From NCBI GenBank assembly GCA_016744705.1, contig JADGDU010000005.1, positions 3,762 through 67,761 on the forward strand: DNA of 64,000 nucleotides, written 5' to 3'. The translations under genes were made by a program, and so were the position numbers. Each line of letters starts with the position of its first letter. The stretch's first letter is position 1. This document shows, one piece after another, positions 5,733 through 48,041 of the stretch. The notes below the pieces were generated by a model. That model had not been told where the DNA came from. It made no database searches and was given only the letters and a program-made list of their open reading frames with translations. The DNA is from Candidatus Krumholzibacteriia bacterium (GTDB lineage: Bacteria > Krumholzibacteriota > Krumholzibacteriia > LZORAL124-64-63).

Positions 5733-7403
<1,671 letters not shown>

Positions 7404-7435
7404 TCATTGTCGGTCACTTGACCATTTTGATGCAA

Positions 7436-7468
7436 ACGGCCCCTCTTTGGAGGGGCCGTTTTTTTTGG
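7436..7468 (+). terminator. Rho-independent terminator after groEL.
   Basis: A GC-rich hairpin, ggcccctctttggaggggcc, is followed by an 8-nt T-run. Confidence 0.7.
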
Positions 7469-9317: not shown

Positions 9318-10078
9318 AAAACAGGTGCCTCACATCTCCACTCATCCTTGTGGTACTGCTGCTTGCCTCAGGATGCGCAACCACAGTGGAACTCTCACGC
9401 CCGGCGGAGGTCGAAGAAGTCCATCCGGGACTCCTTGCCGGATACCTAAAAGAGGGCCCTGATAGCCTGAAACTGGTGGCGCAGCCACCCACTTCCGGAA
9501 GTGCTGCTTTTGCACGCGATGAAGAAGCCAGCAAAGAAAGCTTTGCTTTACGGGGAACGGAACGCTGGAATCAAGCCATCAAGGATGCCAACCTCCATTT
9601 CCCGGCCGCCGCCGATGCCTTTACCGACGTGCTCGGCTTTTCCATATCGGAAGAAAAAACCCCGTTCCTCTATCAACTCCTGCGCCGCACCTTGACCGAT
9701 GCAGGCCTTTCGACCTACACCGCGAAAAACCACTACCAACGCAAACGCCCCTTCATGACTAATGGCCAACCCATTGGTACGCCCGACGAAGAGGATGCGC
9801 TGCGTAAGGATGGTTCCTATCCCTCCGGCCATACCGCTATCGGTTGGGCATGGGCGCTCATCCTGACCGAAGTGGTTCCGGAAAAGACCGATGCCATCCT
9901 CAAGCGAGGATATGAATTTGGCCAAAGCCGTATCATCTGCAACGTTCATTGGCAGAGCGATGTAGACAGTGGGCGGCTCATGGGGTCGGCCACCGTGGCT
10001 CGGTTGCACGCCAACGCCGACTTTATCGCCGATCTCGCTCAAGCCAAGGCCGAGGTCAAAGCTATGAAAAACCCATAG
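9314..10078 (+). CDS. Class A non-specific acid phosphatase (PAP2 superfamily, PhoN/PhoC-like); lipoprotein.
   Basis: All three class-A signature blocks are present: K-x6-RP (KNHYQRKRP), PSGH (YPSGHT) and SR-x5-H-x3-D (SRIICNVHWQSD). The signal peptide ends …LLLASGC-ATT. The ATG overlaps the preceding stop (ATGA). Confidence 0.8.
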   Translation: MKNRCLTSPLILVVLLLASGCATTVELSRPAEVEEVHPGLLAGYLKEGPDSLKLVAQPPTSGSAAFARDEEASKESFALRGTERWNQAIKDANLHFPAAADAFTDVLGFSISEEKTPFLYQLLRRTLTDAGLSTYTAKNHYQRKRPFMTNGQPIGTPDEEDALRKDGSYPSGHTAIGWAWALILTEVVPEKTDAILKRGYEFGQSRIICNVHWQSDVDSGRLMGSATVARLHANADFIADLAQAKAEVKAMKNP

Positions 10079-10223
10079 CACATTGAAAACCGAGAGAACA
10101 TTTACTGAAGGATTAATTATGAGGATTGCACGCACAACTTGGCCAAATTGGGCCAACCTTGGTGGCGGCGTAAACACTTCTAAGCATTTTTAAAATGCTT
10201 TGGCTTTCATAAGGAGTACAGTG

Positions 10224-12080
10224 ATGAAGACTCTGAGGCAGAACAATTTTTTTCTTTTCCTGGCAGCTATGGTACTTCTTGGGGTGTCGGGCATGACTGT
10301 CCATTTGCACGCCACTGAATCCACTTCCACGCCATCGCGTTACATGGGGGGCCCCGTCGAACTGGTAACTGCACCAAACGGCGCGCGGGTGAATGCCGAA
10401 ATTCTTGAGGTCAGCAGCAAGATCAGCTATCTCGAACCAACTACGGAGAAGGTTGCCGCCGGGGTCTGGTGTATTGGCGGTTACTCCCTGGCAAATACAA
10501 CGGTGATTGAGGGTGATGACGGCTTGATCGTCTATGATACCGGTGACACAAAAGAAGAAGCCGAGCACATACGCAAGGCCATCGAAAAGATCAGCGACAA
10601 GCCGGTTAAAGTCATTATTTACAGCCACTCTCACTATGCCTTGGGCGCGGGCGCCTTGGTCGACAATCCAGAGGATGTGCTTATTATTGGCCATCCAAAA
10701 GTCAACGAAACGGTTGAAAGCAGTCTTCAGGGCGGAGGATCGCCATCCGCGATTCCGGAAGTCGGCCCGATAATGACAGCTCGCATAATGTCTCACTTCG
10801 GGTTGCTATTGCCTGACGAAGGGCCGGATGCCGGCGTGGCTCCCAAGCTTGATATGGGGAAACCCATTGCCTTTTTGCCGGCTACCAAGACCGTCGAAAA
10901 CGGCGAAGAACTCGAGGTGCTCGGGATTAAGCTACAGTTTTTCACGGAATACATGTCCGATGATTACAACCTGACGGTCTGGGTGCCGGAGAAAAAGGCT
11001 GTGCTGAATAACTTCTTGTGGCCCGGCACCCCCAATCTCTATACCCTTCGTGGCGGTGTATATCGGTCTCCTTTGATATGGCGCGATGGATTGAAGGTGA
11101 TGCGGGATCTGCAGCCTGAGATTCTTCTCAATACTCACGCACGTGCGGTTGTAGGCGAAGACAAAGTAACGGAAATATTAACCACCTACATGGATATGAT
11201 CACCCTTACCTACGATCAAACCTTGCGAGGGATTATGCGGGGTATGGGACCTGACGAGTTGCGCCATTTTGTAAAAATTCCGTCCTCTCTTAGTGAAATA
11301 CCTGAGAACTTTCAGGGATATGGGGAATCCGTTCATTTCCCGGAAGCCATCTATCAGTACGTGATTGGCTGGTTTGACTGGGACGGCACCAAGCTATTTA
11401 AAATTGCCCCTGAAGATGCGGCCTTGCGCACGGTGGAACTGATGGGCGGAAGAGAAAAGGTAATTGAGGCAACCCGGCTGGCATTCGAAAAAGAAGAATT
11501 TGCCTGGGCCGCGGAGCTTATTCAGTACGCCTACCTGTTGGACCCCATGGCTAAAGATGTGCGACAGCTAAAAGCCGATATATTGCGGCAACTGGGTTAT
11601 CGTACAACCGGCTCTATTGCCAGGGGCTTTCTTTTGTCCGAAGCCCTCGCGCTTGAAGGGAAAATCGAGTCCCCGCTAACCATTATGCCCAGTCCCGAGA
11701 TTGTCGCAGGCTCCCCGGCGGCCTTCGTGGATTATTATCGCATCAGGATCGATCCCGAAAAGAGCAAAGACACCGACACGGTTTTGGAGTTCGTATTTAG
11801 TGATCAGAAAGACCAATCGGTTGCCCTGCACATCAGAGGAGGCGTCGCCGAATTCGTTCCCGAACCTTCAAATTATCTGAAAAAGTCCGATTATATCCTA
11901 CAACTGGATAGAACAACGTGGGCATCGGTCTATTTGGGAACCGCGGATATGGCGGAAGAAATCCAGTCGCAAAAGGTGGAAGTAACGAAAGGCGATGAAA
12001 CAGAATTGGTCGCACTGTTTGAACTCTTCGATAAGTTCAACCCGGCCTCGAATTTCAAAATACTGCCGTTGGTTGAATAA
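10224..12080 (+). CDS. MBL-fold alkyl/aryl-sulfatase-like protein (SdsA1/Bds1 architecture).
   Basis: It has an N-terminal secretion signal, a metallo-beta-lactamase region (…IIYSHSHYALG…) and a C-terminal SCP2-like segment, and is about 620 aa as in alkylsulfatases. I prefer the ATG at 10224, which follows a strong RBS, AAGGAG-7nt-ATG. The ORF track begins at a TTG at 10200. The metal motif reads HSHYA rather than the canonical HxHxDH. Confidence 0.55.
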   Translation: MKTLRQNNFFLFLAAMVLLGVSGMTVHLHATESTSTPSRYMGGPVELVTAPNGARVNAEILEVSSKISYLEPTTEKVAAGVWCIGGYSLANTTVIEGDDGLIVYDTGDTKEEAEHIRKAIEKISDKPVKVIIYSHSHYALGAGALVDNPEDVLIIGHPKVNETVESSLQGGGSPSAIPEVGPIMTARIMSHFGLLLPDEGPDAGVAPKLDMGKPIAFLPATKTVENGEELEVLGIKLQFFTEYMSDDYNLTVWVPEKKAVLNNFLWPGTPNLYTLRGGVYRSPLIWRDGLKVMRDLQPEILLNTHARAVVGEDKVTEILTTYMDMITLTYDQTLRGIMRGMGPDELRHFVKIPSSLSEIPENFQGYGESVHFPEAIYQYVIGWFDWDGTKLFKIAPEDAALRTVELMGGREKVIEATRLAFEKEEFAWAAELIQYAYLLDPMAKDVRQLKADILRQLGYRTTGSIARGFLLSEALALEGKIESPLTIMPSPEIVAGSPAAFVDYYRIRIDPEKSKDTDTVLEFVFSDQKDQSVALHIRGGVAEFVPEPSNYLKKSDYILQLDRTTWASVYLGTADMAEEIQSQKVEVTKGDETELVALFELFDKFNPASNFKILPLVE

Positions 12081-12183: not shown

Positions 12184-13011
12184 GTGAAAAAACGAACTCT
12201 GCTTTACATGGCCATGATAACTTTGTTTTCCATGTCTGTCGCATATGCGGAAGATGTGCCAACACAATCCGATGCTGACCTTGCGCAGGAACTTACCAAT
12301 CCCGTGGCCGATCTCGTCACGGTTCCAATCCAGATGACTATGGATCCGAAGGTTGGACTCTTGGGCGATGGCAGGAAAACACAAACCAATATTCAGCCGG
12401 TCATCCCGTTTGATCTCTCCGAGAATTGGAACATCATCACTCGTACCATTATTCCGGTTATCAATCAGAAGGATATTTTTTCCGGATCAGGCTCTCAGAC
12501 GGGACTGGGAGATATCAGTATGAGCCTTTTTATTGCTCCGAAAGATTCGGGAAAATGGGTTTGGGGCGCAGGCCCTATTGTATTGATGCCGTCGGCGACA
12601 AATGAACTCCTGGGGGGCAAAAAATGGGGCGCAGGCCCCGCGGCGATTCTTCTGAGGATGCAGGGCCCATTCACGTACGGAGGGTTGACTAACCATGTCT
12701 GGTCTTTTGCCGGAGATAGTGAACGCTCCGACATCAGTAATACGTTTGTTCAACCGTTTGTAGCCTATACCACATCCAGTGCGTGGACAGCTTCTCTTCA
12801 GTCTGAAACAACCTATAACTGGGAGGCTGAGCAATGGGCTGTTCCGGTGAACCTGGCCATAGCCAAACTGGTTTATCTTGGAAAGCTCCCTGTGAGCCTG
12901 CAGGCCGGTGCTGGCTATTGGTTGACCGCGGCCGATTCGGCGGCTGAAGGTTGGCGCTTCCGATTACAGGCCAACTTTGTTTTCCCGAAATCAATGTTTA
13001 CCAGTTCGTAA
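12184..13011 (+). CDS. Outer-membrane beta-barrel protein (transporter-like, possibly of the phenol-degradation MetA-type OMP family).
   Basis: It has a GTG start with an RBS and a signal peptide ending …SVAYA-EDV. Alternating amphipathic beta-strand character continues to the C-terminus. It is about 275 aa. Confidence 0.45.
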   Translation: MKKRTLLYMAMITLFSMSVAYAEDVPTQSDADLAQELTNPVADLVTVPIQMTMDPKVGLLGDGRKTQTNIQPVIPFDLSENWNIITRTIIPVINQKDIFSGSGSQTGLGDISMSLFIAPKDSGKWVWGAGPIVLMPSATNELLGGKKWGAGPAAILLRMQGPFTYGGLTNHVWSFAGDSERSDISNTFVQPFVAYTTSSAWTASLQSETTYNWEAEQWAVPVNLAIAKLVYLGKLPVSLQAGAGYWLTAADSAAEGWRFRLQANFVFPKSMFTSS

Positions 13012-27697: not shown

Positions 27698-29980
27698 TTG
27701 AATCTGGCCCAACTTCTACAACAGTTAAAAACTGAAGAGAAATTCACAAGGCATGTGACCCGTTGGCAAACGCTTCCTCCCGAGCCGGCCATCTCTGCTG
27801 CGTACCCCGAAAGCCTGGACCAGAGGCTGGTGGATGTGATGCGCGGCCGGGGTATCGAAGAACTTTACAGCCATCAGGCTGAAGCGGTTCAGTTGGCTGC
27901 AGGCGGACACTCTTTTGTGGTTCCTACACCCACCGCCAGTGGTAAAACCCTCTGCTATAATCTCCCGGTTCTGAACACCATCCTGAACGATCCCCAGGCT
28001 CGGGCCTTATACCTTTTCCCCACCAAAGCCCTGAGCCAGGATCAGATGCATGAAGTGCACGGCATCGTCGGCGATCTGGGTGTGGATATCAAAACGTTCA
28101 CCTTCGATGGCGACACTCCCGAAACGGCCCGCCGAGCCATCCGCAGCAGTGGGCATATCGTGGTGACAAATCCAGATATGTTACACCAGGGAATCCTGCC
28201 CCATCATACTTTATGGGTGAAACTTTTTGAGAACCTCAAGTACGTGGTGGTGGATGAGGTGCATCAGTACCGGGGTGTTTTTGGTAGCCACGTGTCTAAT
28301 GTGCTGCGGCGTTTGCGCCGGGTGGCTCAATTCTATGGTGCGGACCCCCAATTTATCTGCTGCTCCGCCACCATTGCCAACCCCAAGGAATTGGCCGGCC
28401 GCCTGACGGGCTTACCCATGGAGGAAATTTCCCGCAATGGTGCGCCCAGAGGTGAAAAACACTTCATCTTTTACAACCCGCCTGTGGTCAATCAGGAATT
28501 GGGAATTCGGCAATCGGTGATCAAAACCACACGCCGTATTTCTGAGCGTTTCATGTCCAGCGGCACCCAATTGATTGTTTTTGCCCGCAGCCGCATGCGA
28601 GTGGAGCTGTTGCTCACCTACCTGGAAAAAGCCGGCCGTCGTGTGGGCATTAAAAGCGGCGAAGTTCGAGGTTACCGTGGAGGGTATTTGCCGGGTGAGC
28701 GCAGGGCCATTGAACAGGGTTTGCGGGACGGTACTGTTTCCACCGTGGTCTCTACCAACGCCCTGGAGTTGGGTATTGATATCGGGCGGCTGGATGTGTG
28801 CGTCATGGCCGGTTACGCCGGCACCGTGGCCAGCACCTGGAAGCAGGCCGGTCGGGCCGGTCGGCGGCAAAATCTCAGTGCCGTGGTTCTGGTGGCATCC
28901 AGTAGTCCTGCCGATCAATATATCATCAACAACCCAGACTATTTTTTCGGCCGCTCCCCAGAACACGCCACCCTTGATCCGGACAACCTTATCATTCTCA
29001 TCAGCCATCTCAAATGTGCTGCTTTTGAATTGCCTTTCACCACGGATGAAAGGTATGGCGATCAAAAAATTGAGGAGATCCTCGATTACCTGACAGAACA
29101 GGGTGTGCTGCACCGTAGTGGGGGGCGGTACCACTGGATGGCCGACACTTACCCCGCCGAGGAAGTTAGCTTGCGTAGCGCCGCTCCTGATAATGTGGTG
29201 ATCATCGATCAAAGCGTTCCCGGTGGCCGAATCATTGGTGAGATGGATCTTTTCAGCGCCCAGGAAATGCTCCATGACGATGCCGTCTACATGCACGGGG
29301 CCCAGCAATACCATGTCGATCGTTTGGACTGGGACCGGCGGGAAGCCCATGTGCAGCCGGTGCAGGTTGACTACTACACCGACGCCCAGCGCAAATCTGA
29401 ACTCAAAACTCTGACGGCTGAAGAAACTTTACCCTTCACCATGGGCCAATTATTGGTGGGCGAAGTGGGGTTGGTGGCCAAGGTCACTGTTTATAAGAAA
29501 ATCAAACTGGGGACCCACGAAAATGTGGGAGCAGGGCGGGTGCATTTGCCGGAAATGGAAATGCACACCGTTAGTTTCTGGTGGGAATTGCCCGAGAATG
29601 TGGCCGAAGATCTCACCGCTGAAGGGTTTGATCTGGGTGACGGGTTGAAAGGTTTGTCCCACTTGCTGGGCAGAGTGGCTCCGGTTTTCATCATGGCCGA
29701 TCCTTCAGACTTGCATGCCCTGGCCATGGTGCGCTCGCCTTTCACCGGGAGTCCTACCCTGTATATCTACGATGCTTTCCCCGGTGGGGTTGGGTATGCC
29801 CGGCGCATCCATCAGCAGTTTGCAGAAATCTGCCAATCGGCTCAGGACCATTTGCATGCCTGCCCCTGTGAAAGGGGTTGTCCTTCCTGTGTTGGCCCCG
29901 CCACCGAAAGCGGAGATACGGCCCGCCAGGCCGCTGCCTGGATATTAGCCAGAGCGTGTAGCCCATCTGCCGAGGGTTGA
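27698..29980 (+). CDS. mrfA: MrfA-like DEXH-box DNA helicase with a C-terminal DUF1998 Zn-ribbon.
   Basis: It has motif I (VPTPTASGKT), motif II (DEVH) and motif VI (QAGRAGRR). The C-terminal four-Cys cluster is …CPCERGCPSCVGP…. Confidence 0.8.
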   Translation: MNLAQLLQQLKTEEKFTRHVTRWQTLPPEPAISAAYPESLDQRLVDVMRGRGIEELYSHQAEAVQLAAGGHSFVVPTPTASGKTLCYNLPVLNTILNDPQARALYLFPTKALSQDQMHEVHGIVGDLGVDIKTFTFDGDTPETARRAIRSSGHIVVTNPDMLHQGILPHHTLWVKLFENLKYVVVDEVHQYRGVFGSHVSNVLRRLRRVAQFYGADPQFICCSATIANPKELAGRLTGLPMEEISRNGAPRGEKHFIFYNPPVVNQELGIRQSVIKTTRRISERFMSSGTQLIVFARSRMRVELLLTYLEKAGRRVGIKSGEVRGYRGGYLPGERRAIEQGLRDGTVSTVVSTNALELGIDIGRLDVCVMAGYAGTVASTWKQAGRAGRRQNLSAVVLVASSSPADQYIINNPDYFFGRSPEHATLDPDNLIILISHLKCAAFELPFTTDERYGDQKIEEILDYLTEQGVLHRSGGRYHWMADTYPAEEVSLRSAAPDNVVIIDQSVPGGRIIGEMDLFSAQEMLHDDAVYMHGAQQYHVDRLDWDRREAHVQPVQVDYYTDAQRKSELKTLTAEETLPFTMGQLLVGEVGLVAKVTVYKKIKLGTHENVGAGRVHLPEMEMHTVSFWWELPENVAEDLTAEGFDLGDGLKGLSHLLGRVAPVFIMADPSDLHALAMVRSPFTGSPTLYIYDAFPGGVGYARRIHQQFAEICQSAQDHLHACPCERGCPSCVGPATESGDTARQAAAWILARACSPSAEG

Positions 29981-29981
29981 G

Positions 29982-31205
29982 ATGGATTTAAAAAAAAGAC
30001 TGGCCAACATGGACCGTCTCTCCCGCCAGAATGTTGCGCCATCTGCAGGGTCTCGACCTCAGCAGAAAGCCAATGCAACCACCTTAAAAAAATCTTTAAA
30101 TTGCTTGCAGCTTATAAGCTCACAGGGTCAAGAGGAAGAAATTTGGACCAGAGATTATACTGATGATTTTTCTTTGAGTATCACAGAATTACCCTCTTTG
30201 GTTGGCTTTTTCACACGGGCGCATGAAGCTTCACCCGGTTTGGAAGATATTCTTTTCCTGGACACGGAAACCACGGGACTGTCCGGGGGAACCGGTACCA
30301 TTGCTTTTCTGGTGGGGGTGGGCTGGGTCCGGAATAATATATTCCACAGTCGGCAATACTTTCTGCCTGATTTTCATCATGAACACGCCATGTTGAATGA
30401 ACTGGCCTCTCTGGCTCAGAAATTTGAAGTGGTGATGACCTTCAATGGCGCCTCTTTTGATTTGCCTCTTTTGCGCACGCGGGCTTTGATGAACAGGCTG
30501 AAAGATCCCTGCGCGGACTTGGTCAGTTGGGATTTGCTTGTGCCGGGACGCCGCTTGTGGGGACGCATTTTTCCCAATTGCAAACAGCAAACCCTTGAAA
30601 AAGGACTGCTACAAATGAGCCGCGATTCCCGGGATATTGAGGGTGCCCTGATTCCCCAGACCTGGTTCGACTTCCTGCAAACAGCAGAGCCGGATTTGAT
30701 GGGAAGAGTTTTGCATCATAACCAGCGCGACTTGCTGGGGATGGCGGGGATTTTTGCACAGGTTCTGGACAAGGCCCAGTGTCTGCATGATAATATACCA
30801 CAGGAAACGCCCTGGAAAGAGGCCTGGTCCCTGGGGCGTATTGCCGAAATTGCCCGGATCCAGGAGCAAGCAGCCACCTGGATACAATGTGCGGCTCTGG
30901 CCAACGGAAAAGACTCTGAATGTCGGTTTCTGGAAGCCCGTTTTGTGGCCGATGCAATCCGACTTTTGAAACGACAGGGCCATTGGGATGATGTGGAAAT
31001 GATCATCAAAAAAGCATTGGTGGCGGGTCAGGATGAGCCGTGGTTACACCGGGAAGCGGCGATTCTTTATGAACACAGAAGAGCCCATTTATCTAAAGCC
31101 CTGCTTCATGCCCGTCAGTGCCAGGAGCCTGGGCGTATTTTGCGTCTGGAAAAGAAAATCCTAAAAATTCAAGAGGTTAAAAATGGCCCTACCGACACGC
31201 ACTGA
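29982..31205 (+). CDS. mrfB: MrfB/YprB-like RNase-H-fold exonuclease with C-terminal TPR-like repeats.
   Basis: …ILFLDTETTGLSGGTGTIAFLVGVGW…MTFNGASFDLPLL… shows the DEDD-like acidic residues of a PolB-like exonuclease domain. The C-terminal half is helical repeats. The gene starts 2 nt after mrfA. Confidence 0.65.
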   Translation: MDLKKRLANMDRLSRQNVAPSAGSRPQQKANATTLKKSLNCLQLISSQGQEEEIWTRDYTDDFSLSITELPSLVGFFTRAHEASPGLEDILFLDTETTGLSGGTGTIAFLVGVGWVRNNIFHSRQYFLPDFHHEHAMLNELASLAQKFEVVMTFNGASFDLPLLRTRALMNRLKDPCADLVSWDLLVPGRRLWGRIFPNCKQQTLEKGLLQMSRDSRDIEGALIPQTWFDFLQTAEPDLMGRVLHHNQRDLLGMAGIFAQVLDKAQCLHDNIPQETPWKEAWSLGRIAEIARIQEQAATWIQCAALANGKDSECRFLEARFVADAIRLLKRQGHWDDVEMIIKKALVAGQDEPWLHREAAILYEHRRAHLSKALLHARQCQEPGRILRLEKKILKIQEVKNGPTDTH

Positions 31206-31614
31206 AGCCCATTTGATTGTGGCGGCCATCCGCGTGCTTGAGAATCGATTGAAGAAATTGCCTGTACCTGTGGAAATTGCCGACTTGCTGGAGATGAGTG
31301 AAAGCGCTGTACGTCTGCAATTGAACCATTTGTCAGACCTGGGCATTGTGGTTGTGGTGGAAAGTGCTTTTGAAACCCATGTGGAAATCAAACAGTATCT
31401 TTTGATAGAAGAGTTAGCTGCTGAGACGGGGCCGGAAATTGCTGATGATTTGGCTGCCTTCGACTTGAAGCAAGAGGAAGAGGCCCAAAAAATGGCCAAC
31501 CTTTTTGATTCTGGGGAACACGAGCAGAAGCGGCAGGATCGCATGGACAAAATGGATGAGGAACTTCAGAGTTTCAAAGGACGAAAGCCCAGGAATCCCT
31601 TTGGGGATGATTGA
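31183..31614 (+). CDS. Hypothetical acidic protein.
   Basis: The 143-aa protein has a highly acidic C-terminus. It overlaps the mrfB-like 3' end by 23 nt in another frame. It has no recognisable domain. Confidence 0.4.
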   Translation: MALPTRTEAHLIVAAIRVLENRLKKLPVPVEIADLLEMSESAVRLQLNHLSDLGIVVVVESAFETHVEIKQYLLIEELAAETGPEIADDLAAFDLKQEEEAQKMANLFDSGEHEQKRQDRMDKMDEELQSFKGRKPRNPFGDD

Positions 31615-33699: not shown

Positions 33700-34116
33700 A
33701 TGATCAACCCCGGGGTTTTGGCCCTGCTGAGTGGCCTGTCTGCTCAGGCCTTCAAAGTTGTGTTGGAGCTCATAATCAGAAGGCGGTGGCGGCCTTCTCT
33801 CTTTATTTCCAATGGTGGTATGCCCAGTTCGCATTCTGCTACCGTGACCACTCTGACTTTAAAAATCGGCCAATTGGAAGGTTTCCATTCCTCCCTTTTC
33901 AGCCTGGTTTTGGTATTTGGCTTGTATGTGATCATGGAAGCCACAGGTCTGAGACAGGAAATTGGCCAACAGGCGCAATTGCTAAATGAAATGATGGATA
34001 ATGCACTCCATGGTGAAAAGGTAGATGGGAAGAGATTGCGGGAATTGGTTGGTCATACCTGGGCCGAGGTTTTTGGCGGGATACTTTTTGGAGTCCTTTT
34101 TTTCTGGTTGGTGTGA
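33700..34116 (+). CDS. Divergent PAP2 (YuiD/DUF212) family membrane protein.
   Basis: It reads …GGMPSSHSATVTTLT… and …EVFGGILFGVLF… and is 138 aa. Confidence 0.65.
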   Translation: MINPGVLALLSGLSAQAFKVVLELIIRRRWRPSLFISNGGMPSSHSATVTTLTLKIGQLEGFHSSLFSLVLVFGLYVIMEATGLRQEIGQQAQLLNEMMDNALHGEKVDGKRLRELVGHTWAEVFGGILFGVLFFWLV

Positions 34117-34143: not shown

Positions 34144-34171
34144 TTGACACATGGTTTCCGGCGGGTATGAT
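34144..34171 (+). promoter_or_regulatory. Sigma70-like promoter (-35 TTGACA, 16-nt spacer, -10 TATGAT) upstream of the ParA-CBM48 gene.
   Basis: Both hexamers are near-consensus when read directly. The promoter lies about 130 nt upstream of the ATG at 34300. Confidence 0.45.
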
Positions 34172-34299
34172 TTGCAAAACAGTGAGGATGGCCCGCAGTG
34201 GGAGTACACACTTTCGCCTGAGATTCAGCGACAGTTAGACGGAATAAGGAGTATTCCAGATATAGGCGCCACCGGGACTTTTGGTCGAAAGGAATCGAG

Positions 34300-35373
34300 A
34301 TGAGAGTCATAGCTCTGGCCAATCAAAAAGGCGGCTGTGGGAAAACCACTACAGCGACAAATTTGGCTGCCACCCTCTCCAGCATGGGTAAAAAGGTCCT
34401 ACTCATTGATAATGATCCCCAGGGGCATGCCACTTTGGCTTTTGGTTTTCGGGAAAGAGATTTCACCCTCAGCACTTACGATCTTTATCTCACTTCAGAT
34501 ATTTTGATTGAAGATGCTTTCCTGGACATTAGTTCCAATTTGCACCTGGTACCTGCTGGCATTGAATTGAGCGCCGTGGAGCAAACTCTTGCTCGGGAGT
34601 CAGAAAAAGAGTACCGACTCCGCAATAATTTGCGCCGCTCTGCCATGCCCTATGACTATGTCCTTATCGATTGTCCTCCCAGTGTTAGCATCCTCACTTT
34701 TAACGCTTTGCTGGCTTCCAGTGAAATTCTTATTCCCGTGGACCCCAGTTATTACAGCTTGCAGGCTGTCAAGAAAATGCGCGAAACTCTGTCTGTTCTG
34801 CGGGAGAAAAAGGGCCATGATATTATCCCGCATGTGCTCATGTCGGATTTTGATACGCGGCCCCGTTTTGTGCGGAAACTGATGGCGGAACTGGACGACC
34901 TTTATGAAGGCGAACTCCTCGACACAGTGATCCATCATACGGTGCGCTTTAAGGAAGCCGCTGGCATGGGGGTGCCCATCATCCAGCACGATCCCAATTC
35001 TCGAGGAGCCCACGACTTCAGGGGGCTGGCCAGGGAATTATCGGAGCAGGAAGTGCAAGTCAGTGTGGCCGCTCTGGACCATTGGGTGGCTTTGCTACAC
35101 GGACCACAGGTGAGCCAGGCCGGTGTTGTTTTTGAAGCAGATTTCCCAAGGGCCAAAACCGTTCGCATCACCGGTTCATTCTGTAGTTGGTCTGCCAAAG
35201 GGCTACCTTTGAAATGCCGGGAAGATGGAATATGGGAATGCCATCTGGCTCTGGAAGAAGGGGATCACGAGTACCGCTTCATTGTGGACGGCTCCTGGTT
35301 GCCTGATCCCCACAACACAGAAACTACAGCCAATGAATTTGGGGGAGCCAACTCCCTGGTGGTGGTTCCCTGA
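34300..35373 (+). CDS. ParA/MinD-family P-loop ATPase fused to a C-terminal AMPK-beta-like CBM48 glycogen-binding domain.
   Basis: The N-terminus is the deviant Walker A, …IALANQKGGCGKTTTATNLA…LIDNDPQGH…. The C-terminal 90 aa, …VRITGSFCSWSAKGLPL…WECHLALEEGDHEYRFIVDGSWLPDPHN…FGGANSLVVV, matches the AMPK-beta GBD/CBM48 pattern. Confidence 0.8.
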   Translation: MRVIALANQKGGCGKTTTATNLAATLSSMGKKVLLIDNDPQGHATLAFGFRERDFTLSTYDLYLTSDILIEDAFLDISSNLHLVPAGIELSAVEQTLARESEKEYRLRNNLRRSAMPYDYVLIDCPPSVSILTFNALLASSEILIPVDPSYYSLQAVKKMRETLSVLREKKGHDIIPHVLMSDFDTRPRFVRKLMAELDDLYEGELLDTVIHHTVRFKEAAGMGVPIIQHDPNSRGAHDFRGLARELSEQEVQVSVAALDHWVALLHGPQVSQAGVVFEADFPRAKTVRITGSFCSWSAKGLPLKCREDGIWECHLALEEGDHEYRFIVDGSWLPDPHNTETTANEFGGANSLVVVP

Positions 35374-36197
35374 TGGAGGCCCGTCCCAGCCAGCATATTT
35401 CTTCCATTGCTCACTTGTTCTTTGACAACAGCACCGGTAAAGAACACTCCCCAGAAACCGCTTCTTCCAAGCAGGTGTTGGTTGTGGGTACGGGCCGGGA
35501 TACCTGCGCTCCGTACACGGCCGTAGGGTTGGGACAGCATTTCCTTGATCAGTCCATAACCGTGGGCGAAAGAGGGAACACGGAGTCCACCGTTCCCATC
35601 CGGCAGGTCTTTTTTGCGGAACCATCTCCTGTTTGTTTTTCTGGCGTTTCTCATTTGCCAAAGGGTAGTTATCGTTCCCCTGTTTCCGGTGAAACCACTC
35701 CCTGGGCAGTGCGACACGGGTCTTCGGCACCGGTGTTAAGGATTTATCCCGGCCAGGTGCCCAGTGAAGATGTATCTGGTGGAATGGTGGCAGGACGCTT
35801 TTATATCCGGCACCTGGACCTCCCGAGAGAGGCCGAACTGGGAGCCTTGGAAACGGTGGCCTCTTTAGGACAGAGCACTGATCTTGACCTGGGAGAAAAC
35901 GGTTCTCTGCTGTGGTGTGTTTCTATCCGTTCTGCTGTGAGTTTGTCCCTGGTGGGGCGTTTGGGCCGATTGCTGAAGGTTGTAAGCCCCAGTTCCATCC
36001 ATGTGTTGGTTTACTCTGATCGGGGGCGTATTAAGAAAGACAGCTTGCCGGGGGCCAAAGATGATTTGTTGCGACGCTGTGCCCGACTAGTCGAATATGT
36101 CGCCAATGGTACTCCGGTTCATCCTCTCTTGATGGGGGATTCTGCACAACAACAGAACATTCAGCTGGCGTCTTTATCCCGCCAAATATCTCTTTGA
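35373..36197 (+). CDS. Hypothetical protein, translationally coupled to the ParA-CBM48 gene (TGATG overlap).
   Basis: The 274-aa protein has no recognisable domain. Its start overlaps the upstream stop by 1 nt. Competing antisense ORFs at 35203..35730 were judged less likely. Confidence 0.4.
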   Translation: MEARPSQHISSIAHLFFDNSTGKEHSPETASSKQVLVVGTGRDTCAPYTAVGLGQHFLDQSITVGERGNTESTVPIRQVFFAEPSPVCFSGVSHLPKGSYRSPVSGETTPWAVRHGSSAPVLRIYPGQVPSEDVSGGMVAGRFYIRHLDLPREAELGALETVASLGQSTDLDLGENGSLLWCVSIRSAVSLSLVGRLGRLLKVVSPSSIHVLVYSDRGRIKKDSLPGAKDDLLRRCARLVEYVANGTPVHPLLMGDSAQQQNIQLASLSRQISL

Positions 36198-36275
36198 TTA
36201 ATTTTCGGTGGACCCACATCCCCTCATGCCTATAGTTTGGGATTCCATTTGGTCTCCGGGAGGAGTCCCGGCTCT

Positions 36276-36860
36276 ATGGACTTGAATCCCAAAAGGCGAG
36301 GCCCCATGCCCTTTAGAATATTGATGTTCTTGATGCTGACCACTTTCTCTGCACTGGTTGCCGCTCCGGCGTGGACCCAGGAGCCACTTCAGGAAGAACG
36401 ATTCAGCTTGAACCAACCAGGTATTTTGATCATCACCGCTGCCAGCGACACCACCGCTGGTTTCCAATGGCGCCCGGGACCTGGTGAAGGCCGAATCTCT
36501 CTGATTTGGGAGGGAGGGGTGCTCAGTATTCCCGATACACTAGCTATGGATGGGTTTCCTAATAATAATCTGGGTGTGCCTTTGCAGCCGGGGTTTTCCG
36601 GTAATGGCAATGAAGGTCCCCTTTTGTTGGATGACGGACTCTACTCCGTCAACGAAAACCTGATGATGGGCGATGGCGTGATCCAACTCATGGTCTCTGA
36701 TGGTGAGTTGGAAATTTTTGGGCCCCGCTTTAAGTACACCCGCCCTCAGATTGCTGAAGTTAACGATTCCACTAAAGCCAACTTTCTCCTCATCTGTGGT
36801 TTACTCATCTTGATAGCCGTGCTTTTGCGCCGGGCCCGTAAAATTTTGCGCAAGGGATAG
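36276..36860 (+). CDS. Hypothetical secreted, C-terminally membrane-anchored protein.
   Basis: It has an N-terminal signal-like region and a C-terminal TM helix plus basic tail (…LLICGLLILIAVLLRRARKILRKG). The start could also be 36237 or 36306. Confidence 0.4.
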   Translation: MDLNPKRRGPMPFRILMFLMLTTFSALVAAPAWTQEPLQEERFSLNQPGILIITAASDTTAGFQWRPGPGEGRISLIWEGGVLSIPDTLAMDGFPNNNLGVPLQPGFSGNGNEGPLLLDDGLYSVNENLMMGDGVIQLMVSDGELEIFGPRFKYTRPQIAEVNDSTKANFLLICGLLILIAVLLRRARKILRKG

Positions 36861-42800: not shown

Positions 42801-43205
42801 TACTTTTGTGAGGGAATATTACAAAAATTTAATAAACATCATTATGGCAAAATAACATAATATTGTGATGTAGGCCAGCGTTTCTTCGAGTTAAGACGTG
42901 AATTTGAGGCATTGAACTTTTTGTATGTTTGTGGTATAGTCATCTTTCGTATCCATTAGAAATCTCTGTGGGGGCGCCAATTGGCGAAAGAGGGCTTTTC
43001 TACGTATGCTTTCCCTTGTTTGATTCACGGAATATTGGATCCGTCAGAATTCTTAAGGGTTCCTGCGTTCCGGATTCGGTCCTGGGTCTGATTTTGGGGC
43101 CATTTAGACTGTAACAAAAACCTGAAGTTCATTCATAATACAATAATATGCCAACAGTAAACCTGGATCCTTTTCGAGGTGGTTCTGTTTCCATGGAGGA
43201 ATTGC

Positions 43206-46200
43206 ATGTCCGCATTTGGAATTAGCTCACGGTTGAAGCTTCCTTTGGCTTTTTTGGTCGTTTTGTTTGTGACCAATGTCGCTGGCTTCTCTAGCGCAAG
43301 ATCTGAAACAGTGATTTACGAGGGTGGTTTTGCACCTGATCTCTGGTCATGGGAGTATACCCCTGAAGGAGCCATCTACCCTTCTTTGGAGGGGCACCGA
43401 CAACTTTTGGAGCCGGGGCTGCCTATGGTTCCCGTACAGGACCTTGTCCTTCTGATTCCAGCTGGGTTGGACGTGGCCGAGGCTTGGGTTGAGCCGCTGT
43501 CCACCAGAACCGAAAAATTTTCGGATACACCCGCCCTTTCCCCTCCTCATATCACCGATACAGGGGAGATGATCTCCACTAGAAGGATGCAGCCTAGCGA
43601 AGGTGCCTTCCCTGCGGTCTGGGGAGAATTTTCCGGGACCCATACCTGGCGGGGATACAATCTTTTAACCCTGAGTGTTTATCCCGCTCAAATTGAAAAT
43701 CAGACGATCACGTTCCTGGACCAATACGCCGTGCAGGTCGTTTATGCTGATGGCCAACGCCAACGGTTGACCCTGGAACGCGAAAGATTTGTGGATGGGG
43801 AAGTCGCTTCCAATCAGGAAGTTCTTCGTGCTGTTGTGTCCAATACTCAGGCTCTGTCTGGCTACGCCCGTATCAATGGGGCCGTTGTTACAGAAGACAA
43901 GGGACAGTTCGTGCCTACGCGCACACCCAGCCTCAGTGGCAGTGCAGTGCAGTATCTCATCGTCACCAATGAGGACATGGCCCCTGAATTTCAGCGTCTG
44001 GCTGACTACAAAACCCGCCTCGGTATGCAAACTCTGGTGGTGACAAGGGAATACATTGCGGCCAATTTCCGTAACGGAGCCGACATTCAGGAAACCATCC
44101 GCATGTTCATCCAGGATGCTTATGCCAAGTGGGGTACTGAATATGTACTTCTGGGTGGGGATACCGATATCATTCCTCCCCGTTATGTGAACAATACTTT
44201 TTATCCAGCCACCAGTTTTACGGAAATTCCAGTGGACATGTATTTTGCCTGTCTGGATGGCAACTGGAACGCCAATGGCAATGCCCTCTTTGGTGAAGCT
44301 CTGTCCTCCACTGTGGAGGCGGATGATGTAGATTTCGCCGAAGAAGTTTATCTGGGGCGGGCCACCGTAAGTAACAGCACAGCAGCTCAGGTATTTGTGG
44401 ATAAAGTGATTTCCTATGAGACGACGCCTCAAGGATCTCAATGGCCCAACCGTATTCTCTATGCGGCGGAAGTGCTCTTTCCCTCATCCTATGAAGAGGG
44501 CATGAACATCATTCTGGATGGTGCTCAGTTCTCCGACCAGATGGTCAACGATTTGGTTGAGCCATGTACGGATATGGAATATGTCCGCATGCATGAGACC
44601 GATTCCCTCTTTCCCCGGGAAGAGGGTTTGACCCGTAGCGCTTTGATCGACAGTCTGAATACTGGGCACTATGGTATTTTTAACCAGATCGGCCATGGCT
44701 TTTATTTCAATATGTCCGTGGGAAATGAAAATTTCATGAACACGGATGCTGATGCCCTTGTCAATGGCGACCACCTCTTTGTGCTGTTCTCTCTGAACTG
44801 CGCGTCCGCCGCCTTTGATTACAGTTGCCTCATGGAACGTTTTCTGCAAAACCCTAATGGGGGATCCATCCTTTCCATTGGCTCTTCCCGGGCAGCATTT
44901 CCCAACAGCTCCAACAATTACCAACAGGGCTTCTTTGAGGCTCTGTATTGCACGGATGAAAACCGCAGTGGCAAACTCGTGGCCATCAGCCGGTTGCCTT
45001 ATCTTGGTAACACCGTATACAACTACGTTGATCGTTGGACCTTTGAAAATTACACACTTCTTGGTGATCCGACCTTGCCCATCTGGACAGGTGTTCCCCA
45101 GGGCCTTGGTGTGAGCTCATCGGATATGACTCTGGGACCTAACCAACTCAATTTGGTTGTTTCTGAAGGCGGCCAGCCTGCTCGCAATGCTCAGGTTTGT
45201 CTGTCACGGGATGGAGAAGATTTTGCTACTGGGCTGACTAATTTATCCGGTGCCGTCACCTTGGATTACCTGGCCAATATTGAAGGGGCCGTGGATCTGA
45301 GGGTTTCCGGAGTCAATTTGGCACAATTCCAGTCCACCGTGAATGTATTAGACGGAACATCCTATTTGGACCTGTCTTTTGTGGCCGTTACGGACAATGG
45401 ATCCAGTGGCTCTGCGGGTAATGGCAACACCGAAATTGAATCCGGAGAAGTGGTTAATCTCTCACCGATATTGCGTGAAACTGGAGGGGCTGGCCTTTCC
45501 AACCTAACTGGTATCTTGAGCACGACCAACCCCTTGGTAGATGTGTCTTCCAATGCGGCAAATTTTGCAAATGTTAGCGGTGGAGGCCTCACCGGCCCTC
45601 TGACGCCTTTTGTTGTTTCAGTGGACCCGGATATGGTTGATGGAACCCCGGTGACTTTCCAATTGATGCTGACAGATTCTCATGATGAATCTTTTGATGT
45701 TCAATGGACCACGGTGGTGAAAGCTCCCATGTTGGAAGTGGTCAGAATGGATTGGGAAGACGATACCTTTGGTAATGGAGATGGCTTCCTGGGCAACGGT
45801 GAAAGGGTCGTGCTGACCGTTGAAGTTAAAAACTTCGGAGCAGGGCAAGCAGACAATGCTGATCTTCGCATGCGTTCTTACAATGCCAATGTCTCTCTTT
45901 TTGATACCGTGGGAACCGTGGGCAGTCTTGAACTCATGGAAACTTCCGGAGATGTGAGCACGTTTTCTCTGGCTTTAAATGATGCCAGCCGGAAATCCCA
46001 AAGCTTCATATCCATCATTGATAATTACGGACGCTCGAGCCAGCATGCCTTCGTTTTGCAGCGGCCCGAAACACCCATGAATATTGAAACCGACACCAGT
46101 CTTGGCTCCGATGTTATTGCCTTGAACTGGGACCCTCTGGAAGCCGACGAATTGTTTGGGTATAACATTTTCCGAAGCCTTAGTCCGGACGGGCCTTTTG

Positions 46201-48041
46201 AACAAGTGAATCAGGATGTTGTGTTTGGCACTTCCTATTTCCGCAATGAAGGATTGTCCCAACTCACTAAGTATTATTACCAGGTTTGCAGTGTAGGTGA
46301 ATCTCTGGTTCCCAGTTCCGTCTCTGTGGTGGTGGAACAGGCGACGGCACCAGCGGAAGCCATCGGTTTCCCCGTGACCTTTATCAATGAAACCAGTGGC
46401 AGTCTGGCTGTGGGTGACGTTGATGGTGATGGCGATTATGAAGTTGTTTTGGGTAGTGATGAGCTCTATGTGTGGCATCATGATGGCACCGAATTATTTG
46501 ACGGTGATAACGATAGCCAAACCCTGGGGCCTGTGACCAATAACAATAGTAATGTGAGTCCTGCGGGCATCGCATTGGCTCAATTGGACGGACTTCCCGG
46601 GTTGGAAATGATTTACTGTGACCGCAGTAATCCCGAGTTGGTCAACGTGCTGGATCAGGCGGGGAACCCTCTTCCTGGATGGCCTCAAACCACCAACGGT
46701 GGATCGGGCACCCAGTGGGTGTGGGCCAGTCCTGCGGTTGGCGATATTGATGGCGACGGAGATTTGGAAGTAATCATCAATTCTCTCAATGGTCGCACCT
46801 GGGCCTGGCACCATGACGGGACTGAAGTGCGTGACGGGGATAACAATCCTGACACTAATGGACTGTTCATGATCCGCCCCGGCGCCCATGGAGAATGGGG
46901 GCTCAGTTCCCCTGTGTTATACGATCTGGACGATGATGGCGCCGATGATATCATCTTTGGAACCGGGGCCGATGATACGGGTGGCAACAAACTTGTGGCT
47001 TACAAAGTGGATGGAACAGATGTTCCCGGCTTCCCTTACTTTTCCGATAGCCGTATCAACAACAGTGCTGCCGTCGGCGATCTCAACAACGATGGCATGG
47101 TGGAAATTGTCTTTTATGACAGCACCGGACATCTTTATGCCGTCCAGCAGGACGGCACCGATTATCCCGGATTCCCTGCGGATTACGGATTCGGTACCAG
47201 AAGTGGTGGCTTGCCCAGCGTGGCCTTGGGTGACATGGATGAAGATGGTGAATTGGAAATCATCTTTGCCGGAAATGTTGATGGTGACTTGAGTAAGTTG
47301 GTCATCGTGGACACCGATGTTAATGGCGGCACCAGTGGGCTATCTCTGAATGGTTGGCCCATTGATTTGCCCGGTAGCTCCGAAGGCAGTCCCGTGGTGG
47401 GCGACATTGATGGAGACGCTGTTCCCGATATCATCTTCGGTATTGGTGGAGGCTCCGAAGATGCTCCCAACAACCTTTATGCCTTTAAAGCCAATGGCCA
47501 ATCCATTGATGGTTTTCCCATCACCTTGACTGGTCCCATCATGCCCACACCCGTGATCTGTGACCTGGATGGCGATCTGGATGTGGATATCATTCTCGGT
47601 GCCTGGGATCGTGAAGTTCATGTTTGGGATATGCCATTTGCTTTCGACCAGCGCCATTGCCCATGGCCCACGTACCAGGGCAATATGCAGCGGGACGGGG
47701 TCCTGATTTCTGTAGATCTGGTGGGCGTGGATGATGTCGCTGACCTTCCTGCGGCCACCTTCAAGGTGGAGGCTCCATACCCGAATCCATTCAACCCTTC
47801 CACCAGCATTCGGCTTCATGTGCCTGTGGTGAAGGGGGCCTCTAGTCTGGAACTAAATGTGTATGACCTGCAGGGCCGAAAGGTACGCACATTGCATAAT
47901 GGTCCCATCTCTTCCGGTTGGCATACCATGATCTGGGATGGACAGGACAACTCAGGACGGAATCAATCCAGTGGCATGTATTTCATGCGGGCCCGTAGTG
48001 GAGGCAGTTCGTCCATTCACAAAATGACTCTGGTGAAATAA
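43206..48041 (+). CDS. Giant secreted gingipain-like (peptidase C25) protein with a seven-blade FG-GAP/integrin-like repeat region and a T9SS C-terminal sorting domain.
   Basis: The ATG at 43206 follows GGAGGA-5nt. The tracked ORF begins at an upstream GTG. A signal peptide is present. The C25-like His and Cys regions are …IGHGFYFN… and …LNCASAAFDY…. Seven (V/L)GD(V/I)DGDGD…E(V/I)(V/I) repeats lie in 46411..47600. The C-terminus …PYPNPFNPSTSIRLH…LNVYDLQGRKVRTL…GMYFMRA…KMTLVK is paralogous to the CTD of the 5..4480 protein. Confidence 0.8.
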   Translation: MSAFGISSRLKLPLAFLVVLFVTNVAGFSSARSETVIYEGGFAPDLWSWEYTPEGAIYPSLEGHRQLLEPGLPMVPVQDLVLLIPAGLDVAEAWVEPLSTRTEKFSDTPALSPPHITDTGEMISTRRMQPSEGAFPAVWGEFSGTHTWRGYNLLTLSVYPAQIENQTITFLDQYAVQVVYADGQRQRLTLERERFVDGEVASNQEVLRAVVSNTQALSGYARINGAVVTEDKGQFVPTRTPSLSGSAVQYLIVTNEDMAPEFQRLADYKTRLGMQTLVVTREYIAANFRNGADIQETIRMFIQDAYAKWGTEYVLLGGDTDIIPPRYVNNTFYPATSFTEIPVDMYFACLDGNWNANGNALFGEALSSTVEADDVDFAEEVYLGRATVSNSTAAQVFVDKVISYETTPQGSQWPNRILYAAEVLFPSSYEEGMNIILDGAQFSDQMVNDLVEPCTDMEYVRMHETDSLFPREEGLTRSALIDSLNTGHYGIFNQIGHGFYFNMSVGNENFMNTDADALVNGDHLFVLFSLNCASAAFDYSCLMERFLQNPNGGSILSIGSSRAAFPNSSNNYQQGFFEALYCTDENRSGKLVAISRLPYLGNTVYNYVDRWTFENYTLLGDPTLPIWTGVPQGLGVSSSDMTLGPNQLNLVVSEGGQPARNAQVCLSRDGEDFATGLTNLSGAVTLDYLANIEGAVDLRVSGVNLAQFQSTVNVLDGTSYLDLSFVAVTDNGSSGSAGNGNTEIESGEVVNLSPILRETGGAGLSNLTGILSTTNPLVDVSSNAANFANVSGGGLTGPLTPFVVSVDPDMVDGTPVTFQLMLTDSHDESFDVQWTTVVKAPMLEVVRMDWEDDTFGNGDGFLGNGERVVLTVEVKNFGAGQADNADLRMRSYNANVSLFDTVGTVGSLELMETSGDVSTFSLALNDASRKSQSFISIIDNYGRSSQHAFVLQRPETPMNIETDTSLGSDVIALNWDPLEADELFGYNIFRSLSPDGPFEQVNQDVVFGTSYFRNEGLSQLTKYYYQVCSVGESLVPSSVSVVVEQATAPAEAIGFPVTFINETSGSLAVGDVDGDGDYEVVLGSDELYVWHHDGTELFDGDNDSQTLGPVTNNNSNVSPAGIALAQLDGLPGLEMIYCDRSNPELVNVLDQAGNPLPGWPQTTNGGSGTQWVWASPAVGDIDGDGDLEVIINSLNGRTWAWHHDGTEVRDGDNNPDTNGLFMIRPGAHGEWGLSSPVLYDLDDDGADDIIFGTGADDTGGNKLVAYKVDGTDVPGFPYFSDSRINNSAAVGDLNNDGMVEIVFYDSTGHLYAVQQDGTDYPGFPADYGFGTRSGGLPSVALGDMDEDGELEIIFAGNVDGDLSKLVIVDTDVNGGTSGLSLNGWPIDLPGSSEGSPVVGDIDGDAVPDIIFGIGGGSEDAPNNLYAFKANGQSIDGFPITLTGPIMPTPVICDLDGDLDVDIILGAWDREVHVWDMPFAFDQRHCPWPTYQGNMQRDGVLISVDLVGVDDVADLPAATFKVEAPYPNPFNPSTSIRLHVPVVKGASSLELNVYDLQGRKVRTLHNGPISSGWHTMIWDGQDNSGRNQSSGMYFMRARSGGSSSIHKMTLVK

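Follow-up and report, generated by a model that had tools for sequence, protein, structure and literature searches.

A ParA-type ATPase fused to a glycogen-binding domain, with a degenerate paralogue as its partner: a candidate glycogen-positioning system in bacteria

ATPases of the ParA/MinD class are a general means of placement, e.g., for chromosomes, plasmids, carboxysomes, chemoreceptor arrays, flagella and the divisome. To our knowledge, in every known case the cargo is recognized by a separate adaptor protein, and we know of no member of the class with a polysaccharide cargo. The N-termini of ParB, MinE and McdB and the activator helix of FlhG stimulate or gate their own ATPase or nucleoside triphosphatase (NTPase) partners; in the MinD-like FlhG, the partner NTPase is stimulated by a conserved N-terminal helix, which is short and borne by a flexible arm. 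The inheritance of one storage inclusion, the poly-3-hydroxybutyrate (PHB) granule, is coupled to the nucleoid via PhaM. Nucleoid-coupled inheritance has also been documented for the polyphosphate granules of Caulobacter (PMC3806658). The subject of the present analysis is a two-gene locus of a Candidatus Krumholzibacteriia bacterium (assembly GCA_016744705.1, contig JADGDU010000005.1), located at positions 34144–36197 of a stretch of 64,000 nucleotides, hereafter called the window, to which all coordinates refer unless another locus is named. The first gene codes for a Soj-like ParA ATPase bearing a CBM48-type glycogen-binding domain at its C-terminus, and the second for a partner with the predicted fold of a ParA/MinD protein. 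These findings suggest the existence of a widespread, undescribed system tying glycogen stores to the chromosome-based positioning machinery. The parts of the pair are as follows (lengths in amino acids, aa; structure models by AlphaFold2, with the predicted local distance difference test score abbreviated as pLDDT):

34300–35373 (stop codon included), + strand: gene of the ParA–CBM48 fusion, 357 aa, with the protein N-terminus MRVIALANQKGGCGKTT; from the reading of the open reading frame (ORF), Pfam, NCBIfam and the homologue search
34300–35049, + strand: Soj-type ParA ATPase domain, residues 1–250; from AAA_31, matches to solved structures, Foldseek and conserved residues
34327–34350, + strand: deviant Walker A motif KGGCGKTT, residues 10–17; from the sequence
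35050–35100, + strand: flexible tether between the ATPase and CBM48, residues 251–267; AlphaFold2 pLDDT below 50 at residues 252–264
35101–35370, + strand: CBM48/AMPK-β-type glycogen-binding domain, residues 268–357; from Pfam, phmmer, AlphaFold2 and residue conservation
35373–36197, + strand: gene of the 274-aa partner, a predicted pseudo-ATPase of the ParA/MinD fold, translationally coupled via a TGATG overlap
35382–35423, + strand: N-terminal peptide of the partner, R4-PSQHISSIAHLFF-17, in a disordered segment; proposed ParA-contact or activator peptide
35487–35519, + strand: degenerate P-loop GTGRDTCAPYT, partner residues 39–49; signature and catalytic lysines both absent

In the first-pass annotation of this DNA, an ATPase with a deviant Walker A motif was read from the letters together with a C-terminal CBM48 domain, and profile searches bear out both. 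The N-terminus, which that annotation proposed to compare with ParA and CbiA profiles, is matched by AAA_31 on residues 1–171 (E-value 9e-50, 169 bits) as well as by CbiA (68 bits), ParA (42.5 bits) and MipZ (44 bits), every one of them over its Pfam cut-off. Among the NCBIfam models, minD_bact yields 59 bits at a cut-off of 213, and the fusion is far under the cut-offs of RepA, SopA and PrgP. The nearest solved sequences are the ParA 8ray (E-value 4e-49), the Soj of Thermus thermophilus (3e-39) and that of Helicobacter pylori. The AlphaFold2 model of the fusion (pLDDT 88, predicted template modelling score, pTM, 0.70) reaches TM-scores of 0.90–0.93 against Soj/ParA structures in Foldseek, with McdA, MinD and BcsQ further off; McdA is nevertheless among the structural matches of both the fusion and its partner. 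A MinD-type C-terminal membrane-targeting helix is absent from the fusion, whose C-terminus is the CBM48 β-sandwich, and neither minC nor minE is found near its gene.

Conservation was counted over 130 aligned representatives, one per cluster at 50% identity, each possessing the ParA N-terminus and the carbohydrate-binding module (CBM). Residues K10, K15, T16, D37, D39 and D124 are unchanged in all 130, and R187, the putative residue of non-specific DNA binding, is retained in 108 (83%). The latter aligns with the arginine of the DGRT motif of T. thermophilus Soj (the equivalent of Soj R189), which we take to be the non-specific DNA-binding residue of that protein. The family also has signatures of its own, namely C13 (KGGCGKT; 124 of 130) and H43 (DPQGH; 128 of 130), where Soj has V and N (KGGVGKT, DPQGN). 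A conserved Cys within the P-loop is unusual for a ParA; the codons of C13 and H43 are at 34336–34338 and 34426–34428. Since the catalytic residues are invariant, R187 is mostly kept and Soj is the closest relative, the first domain of the fusion reads as a catalytically intact, Soj-like ParA, active and probably nucleoid-binding.

The C-terminal segment scores as CBM48 with two Pfam models, i.e., AMPK1_CBM on residues 285–356 (E-value 4.6e-13, 49.6 bits at a cut-off of 26.8) and CBM_48 on residues 268–333 (29.3 bits at a cut-off of 22.4). In a phmmer search against PDB, residues 284–355 align to the glycogen-binding domains of AMPK β1 and β2 (E-value 3e-10), and AlphaFold2 predicts a confident β-sandwich for residues 270–356. 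Fusion residues W297, R326, W333, G348 and N351 correspond to W100, K126, W133, G147 and N150 of AMPK β1, in which glycogen binding is lost with the substitutions W100G and K126Q and reduced with W133L and G147R (PMC6274970). Across the 130 representatives, these sugar-contact positions are largely kept: W297 in 100%, R/K326 in 97%, W333 in 97%, G348 in 95% and N/D351 in 91%. The CBM48 residues retained here are those specific for α-1,4/1,6-glucan.

The tether connecting the two domains differs in length across the family, from near nothing to about 350 residues (an acidic linker in one member), and it is this variation that spreads the size of the members from 337 to 698 aa. In the model, the ATPase and CBM48 are without a predicted fixed contact (pTM 0.70, disordered linker). 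A capture domain would be expected to combine a conserved binding site with a floppy arm of any length, as is the case here.

The exhaustive homologue search revealed at least 130 clusters of the fusion at 50% identity, with members from Krumholzibacteriota, Myxococcota, Omnitrophota, Planctomycetota and one gammaproteobacterium. The clade to which the fusion itself belongs contains more than 120 clusters of 66–94% identity, almost all exactly 357 aa long; homologues at 69–78% identity bear Krumholzibacteriota source labels, and full-length relatives at 34–44% identity come from Myxococcota, Omnitrophota, Planctomycetota and a Thiogranum metagenome-assembled genome. Judging by these matches, the ParA–CBM48 fusion is a large family and not an oddity of one genome. 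The conservation of its pairing with the 274-aa ORF, a point raised for checking in the first-pass annotation, was found in the loci examined (designated below by L and a number), and the pair is conserved across several phyla and specifically associated. The ATPase and CBM48 are the sole universal features, to which most lineages add a partner with the N-terminal peptide. In the locus L005 (JAHOYV010000098.1), the fusion is 80% identical to that of the window and is followed by the same partner, and the record is labelled Gemmatimonadales, which may be a binning or labelling conflict. Four long proteins, P0138 (1812 aa), P0174 (1436 aa), P0201 (1337 aa) and P0267 (1409 aa), contain 7–18 tandem CBM48-like stretches.

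The partner gene begins within the stop codon of the fusion: the overlapping TGATG noticed in the first-pass annotation is present at 35371–35375, and the start codon of the partner uses the A of the TGA stop. The 274-aa product, described there as lacking a known domain, indeed gives zero matches in Pfam and NCBIfam and belongs to no named family. It diverges faster than the fusion, with 17 clusters of homologues at 38–65% identity vs. 66–94% for the fusion, and positional orthologues at 23–26% identity were found in more distant loci of the Krumholzibacteria type. An insertion at residues 83–137 is invariant within the lineage. The AlphaFold2 model and the structure search predict a SIMIBI-class, ParA/MinD-like α/β fold with FlhG as a top structural match, and this confident folding of the product argues for the plus strand as the coding one. 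The antisense ORFs 35203–35730 and 35265–35717, tried as genes, were rejected in favour of the conserved and confidently folding products of the + strand.

A profile comparison of the partner with the fusion ATPase by hhalign set GTGRDTCAPYT against GCGKTTTATNL of the fusion, aligning the P-loop alone and without significance (probability 2.4%); hence, the homology rests on the structure and on the orthologue from L006, which carries GGDRTPGKST followed by IVDAD and passes the Pfam thresholds of ParA (38.2 bits) and CbiA. One partner orthologue carries the NCBI label 'MinD/ParA family ATP-binding protein'. Neither a helix-turn-helix (HTH) nor a ParB/Srx domain was detected in the partner by Pfam or by fold. 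Overall, the model points to a degenerate ParA/MinD paralogue, i.e., a pseudo-ATPase, which is not ParB- or McdB-like. Thus, of the McdB/ParB-like stimulator envisaged in the first-pass annotation, the likeness does not hold for the fold, and the stimulator role fits the basic, disordered N-terminal peptide.

Partner proteins of ParA/MinD ATPases are reported to engage the ATPase via a positively charged, disordered N-terminus (PMC10241942). In the partner described here, residues 1–29 are modelled with pLDDT below 50 and harbor the peptide R-P-S-Q-H-I-S-S-I-A-H-L-F-F, basic at first and hydrophobic further on, and essentially invariant inside the phylum. A peptide of the same kind opens the ORF that directly follows the fusion in other phyla, in these variants: KTLADVSHLFFS, FEDISHYFLS, HIRSIGHYFLS, RHIRDIAHLYLS, LREVSHYFLS, SLEDISHLFLS, RLEKISHHFLT, KIDDVGHLFLS, KKLGRGLEEVSHLFLS and SLNDFAHLFLT. 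The variants with LGRGLEEV and LGRSLDDV (e.g., KKLGRGLEEVSHLFLS and LGRGLEEVSHLFLS) resemble the LGRGLxALL peptide of ParB. The recurrent features of the peptide are a preceding Arg/Lys, the N-terminal location, conservation, disorder in the model and specificity to the fusion loci.

The specificity is documented by a class-based regular expression, which matched seven times in 17 distant loci (135,000 aa of six-frame ORFs; the mean in shuffled sequences was 0.17); all seven matches are N-terminal in the ORF that comes right after the fusion. Three more matches, likewise N-terminal in the downstream ORF, came from fusion loci collected later. In the control comprising 68 ordinary Soj/ParA loci (437,000 aa), there were two matches, neither of them N-terminal nor ParA-adjacent. 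The ParB-type N-terminus (GLGRGLxxLL) shows the opposite distribution, occurring in 21 of the 68 control loci and in none of the 24 fusion loci. Comparison of the Krumholzibacteria and distant partner profiles yields an E-value of 2.8e-6 across the peptide and P-loop region. A hidden Markov model of the peptide (16 residues) built from Krumholzibacteria only, in which the adjacent partners ranked 2nd, 3rd and 7th among 1,057 ORFs with E-values of 0.3–4, turned out to be too narrow and was replaced by the expression with its shuffles and the 68-locus control. By analogy, the peptide would contact or stimulate ParA–CBM48.

The gene neighbourhoods were sampled in about 24 fusion loci, and two of these, from distant lineages, apparently place the pair in one operon with genes of glycogen synthesis (glycogen synthase, GH57 branching enzyme). 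In L085, the order is the fusion, the partner, a 108-aa ORF, a free AMPK1_CBM protein, a GlgA-like protein (Glyco_transf_5 and GT1) and GH57 with BE_C; in L094, the fusion, the partner, a 205-aa ORF, GH57, DUF4912 and GH57 with BE_C follow each other on a single strand. As to the details of these loci, the public gene call at 6959–7555 (−) of L085 is an antisense ORF, and the + strand at 7166–8101 encodes the partner RRHIRDIAHLYLSG. The glycogen-synthase-like gene of L085 falls into two ORFs, 9265–10143 with the N-terminal Glyco_transf_5 part and 10807–11820 with the remainder and GT1, probably as a result of a frameshift or an assembly break. The DUF4912 protein of L094, encoded at 12228–12914 between the two GH57 genes, may represent an uncharacterised factor linked to glycogen metabolism.

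The following sequence of events can be proposed. The ATP-bound ParA dimer would sit on the nucleoid via the Soj-type arginine R187, and its two tethered CBM48 domains would hold α-glucan (glycogen) particles. Docking of the partner N-terminal peptide on the dimer would stimulate or gate ATP hydrolysis, which would free ParA from DNA. Through many such cycles of binding and release, the glycogen particles would become spread along the nucleoid instead of being excluded to the poles, so that both daughter cells would inherit them. Glycogen binding, DNA binding, ATPase stimulation and positioning are all inferred steps, and we assign a probability of roughly 45% to the reading in which nucleoid-bound ParA dimers hold α-glucan via their tethered CBM48 domains, the partner peptide triggers release and glycogen becomes distributed.

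Several points weigh against this reading. Glycogen genes lie nearby in only two of the roughly 24 sampled loci, and neither glycogen genes nor ParB are present in the 64-kb window. The Krumholzibacteria pair is situated between a PAP2-like gene and the Wzy_C, GT4 and WecA-like genes, and in Omnitrophota and Planctomycetia the fusion occurs without a MinD-like partner, beside an Alginate_exp porin and a membrane protein. A classical ParA ratchet has its stimulator seated on the cargo; if the partner does not bind glycogen, the system would work as a regulated tether and not as a ratchet. As bacterial glycogen usually occurs in many small particles, the need for their active partitioning is not obvious. 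As for the methods, the class-based peptide expression was generalised partly after the distant sequences had been seen, and the AlphaFold2 models of the fusion and the partner derive from shallow alignments of 16 sequences each.

The subtype of the CBM invites a different explanation, considered rather unlikely: the documented role of the AMPK-β CBM is regulatory glycogen sensing (PMC6274970, PMC2642990), and CBM48 could be such a sensor here, with glycogen sequestering or altering the ATPase and so coupling another ParA task to the carbon reserves. The outputs so coupled could include chromosome segregation, division-site placement and the positioning of another cargo bound by the body of the partner, which is large and conserved within lineages (e.g., the insertion at residues 83–137) and could accommodate it. 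The nearness of the ATPase domain to chromosomal Soj and the lack of glycogen genes near most loci speak for a sensor, but a ParB-type domain or N-terminus, a parS-associated gene or a division gene is linked to the fusion in none of the 24 loci. The hugely variable tether and the missing fixed interdomain contact in the model suit a reach-and-grab function better than an allosteric domain, and the two operons with glycogen-synthesis genes fit a direct role at the granule. An ordinary ParA of chromosome or plasmid partition with an incidental β-sandwich, followed by a fast-evolving ParB substitute, is highly improbable: the C-terminus scores as CBM48 with highly conserved sugar-contact residues, the family has signature residues of its own at positions 13 and 43, and the fusion is under the cut-off of NCBIfam ParA_partition (NF041546; 132.3 bits vs. 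180), although its ATPase is 35–40% identical to many chromosomal Soj proteins, is structurally closest to Soj and has homologues annotated by their sources as 'chromosome partitioning protein'. The fusion loci lack a ParB-type domain or N-terminus, the fold of the partner is that of ParA/MinD, without HTH or ParB/Srx, and the 64-kb window is ordinary chromosome, free of origin-region or plasmid genes.

The genes surrounding the pair raise still another, improbable explanation, a BcsQ-like organiser of an envelope-polysaccharide machine: a membrane complex making or exporting glucan or another polysaccharide would be placed or gated by the ATPase together with its partner, and CBM48 would hold a cytoplasmic primer or polymer or a glycosylated component. 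In Krumholzibacteria, DUF212 precedes the fusion, and the order from the fusion onwards is the partner, a secreted protein, Wzy_C, GT4, a WecA-like glycosyltransferase (Glycos_transf_4) and a methyltransferase; PMT_2 and DUF212 stand upstream of the fusion in L010 and L088, and an Alginate_exp barrel, a membrane protein, the fusion and DUF4870 stand together in Omnitrophota/Planctomycetia. However, these genes differ between lineages, none of them being universal, and adjacency in Krumholzibacteria is little informative since the whole region is syntenic there. The Pfam family CBP_BcsQ matches the fusion at 59 bits, yet the NCBIfam model BcsQ (TIGR03371) gives 93.5 bits at a cut-off of 157.85, BcsQ is well below Soj in structural similarity, and there are no bcs genes in the window. 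The C-terminus being occupied by the CBM, the fusion has no membrane-targeting helix; the Soj-type arginine points to DNA rather than to the membrane, and the conserved CBM48 residues to α-1,4/1,6-glucan. The positioning of glycogen on the nucleoid by tethered CBM48 domains is the preferred reading.

The remaining features of the locus are its putative expression signals and the two flanking genes:

34144–34171, + strand: sigma-70-like promoter TTGACA-16 nucleotides-TATGAT upstream of the two-gene unit, 11 of 12 consensus matches
34290–34293, + strand: AGGA, Shine-Dalgarno-like, 6 nucleotides before the ATG at 34300; read from the sequence
33700–34116, + strand: DUF212 (divergent PAP2) gene, directly upstream; a conserved neighbour in Krumholzibacteria and L010/L088, membership in the system uncertain
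36237–36860, + strand: 207-aa protein; predicted signal peptide, C-terminal transmembrane helix; the next gene in all Krumholzibacteria loci examined, membership uncertain

Position 34144, the start of the stretch under study, is noncoding and belongs to the −35 hexamer of the promoter-like site; the assignment is a match to the sigma-70 consensus alone, with three promoter-like sites in the region vs. a mean of 2.6 in shuffled sequences. The 207-aa protein has homologues in the same position of L003 and L005 (E-values 4e-26 to 5e-36) and zero Pfam matches. Generally, the partner is followed by a gene shared inside a lineage and not between lineages, without a Pfam match in any, and such genes may be lineage-specific third components. 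One family of about 190 aa is found in L090 (2667–3230), L091 (10929–11495) and L013 (6802–7395), with an E-value of 1e-14 between L091 and L013, and another of about 108 aa in L085 (7983–8309), L088 (5872–6198) and L010 (6488–7171), with an E-value of 1e-8. A sigma-54 activator and PilZ are near the fusion in L086, and MerR and UvrC in L091.

In Omnitrophota/Planctomycetia, the upstream protein of about 190 aa has a cytoplasmic N-terminus, a basic stretch, a single transmembrane helix and a periplasmic β-sandwich (L009, 334–930; L012, 4409–4981; L015, 1677–2258; L014, 4256–4996). Further upstream are the genes 2886–4232 in L012 and 30–1457 in L015, with an Alginate_exp outer-membrane barrel in L012, and DUF4870 follows the fusion. 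The conserved cytoplasmic N-terminus of the membrane protein reads EIYEHLAKVYL or EVSEHLARVFF. The former is loosely like the partner peptide, and aligning the two needs a 3-residue gap; this N-terminus could be the same ParA-binding tag on another scaffold.

Upstream of the pair, the Krumholzibacteria order comprises a MrfA-like helicase, RNase_H_2, an HTH protein, PpiD (on the opposite strand) and DUF212. In the window, a DEAD/Helicase_C/WHD_HRQ1/MZB helicase and an exonuclease of the RNase_H_2 superfamily with a TPR-like tail occupy 27698–31614, presumably as a MrfA/MrfB repair pair. The gene after the exonuclease codes for a 143-aa protein with weak HTH matches, and the trio is syntenic in all Krumholzibacteria loci examined. 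Elsewhere in the window, a 1620-aa protein encoded at 43179–48041 combines Peptidase_C25 (gingipain-type), FG-GAP repeats and a C-terminal FlgD_ig and is probably a large protease, either secreted or exposed at the surface. The segment 58300–63390 holds four successive Glyco_transf_9 (heptosyltransferase-type) paralogues, with a HAD-type phosphatase between them at 60569–61177, and looks like a cluster of the lipopolysaccharide-core type.

As the first-pass annotation had supposed, the literature searched, with many subscription papers outside its reach, yielded neither a ParA-type protein described as bearing a glycogen-binding domain nor a case of glycogen positioned by a ParA. The word glycogen does not occur in a survey of the ParA/MinD ATPases (PMC10241942). 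The fuller claim, i.e., a dedicated system of glycogen partition or positioning in at least five phyla, with the first carbohydrate cargo of a ParA/MinD ATPase, the cargo module on the ATPase itself and a dead paralogue supplying a ParB-like activating peptide, is put forward somewhat more tentatively than the mechanism. If it is true, storage carbohydrate joins the list of actively organised cell contents, and a different architecture emerges in which cargo recognition resides on the motor and a pseudo-enzyme paralogue acts as the regulator. The inheritance or sensing of glycogen in bacteria is, as far as we know, largely unexplored, and the locus would offer a simple, testable entry to it. 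Should the CBM be a sensor, the family would be a bacterial counterpart of AMPK-type glycogen sensing, connected to a positioning ATPase, and equally new. The parts are small and modular (the ATPase, the CBM and a peptide of about 15 residues), and may serve as a synthetic "luggage tag" for polysaccharide granules.

Among the described systems, McdA/McdB resembles the locus in the use of a nucleoid-type ParA for a non-DNA metabolic cargo, in the two-gene unit and in a partner with a disordered charged N-terminus. In McdA/McdB, however, the cargo module is not on the ATPase, to which CBM48 is fused here, and McdB is intrinsically disordered or coiled-coil, whereas the partner here is predicted to be a folded ParA/MinD pseudo-ATPase; the predicted cargo is a polysaccharide instead of a protein shell, and carboxysome genes are not present. 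The likeness to Soj/ParA–Spo0J/ParB includes the closeness of the ATPase in sequence and structure, the retained signature lysine and DNA-binding arginine and, in some lineages, the similarity of the partner peptide (LGRGLEEVSHLFLS) to the LGRGLxALL activator peptide; unlike ParABS, the locus has no ParB, neither ParB/Srx nor HTH, and an extra CBM48, and is under the ParA_partition cut-off. BcsQ is also a ParA/MinD ATPase tied to polysaccharide biology, which agrees with the CBP_BcsQ match and with some neighbourhoods containing genes of polysaccharide export or assembly; here, there is no bcs operon and no partner of the BcsR type, the score is below the NCBIfam cut-off, and the structure is further than Soj.

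In both Pfam and PDB, the C-terminal domain matches the β subunit of AMPK/SNF1 best, with the tested glycogen-binding residues kept and the same cytoplasmic, non-catalytic use of the CBM. In contrast to AMPK β, the CBM is attached to a bacterial P-loop positioning ATPase and not to a kinase scaffold, K126 is represented by Arg or Lys, and L146 by Phe, Tyr or Leu. The FlhF/FlhG pair likewise consists of two paralogous SIMIBI-class proteins encoded together, and FlhG is a top structural match of the partner, but the partner here has lost the nucleotide-binding lysines, its proposed target is a ParA and not a GTPase of the signal recognition particle type, and the flagellar context is absent. Polyphosphate and PHB granules are storage inclusions spaced and inherited by coupling to the chromosome as well, in systems not known to use a dedicated ParA bearing a cargo-binding domain; for glycogen, the literature searched contained no report of such an inheritance. 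Overall, the locus differs from the known systems of ParA/MinD and partner in three ways: the cargo module is located on the ATPase, a putative pseudo-ATPase paralogue serves as the partner, and a carbohydrate is the predicted cargo.

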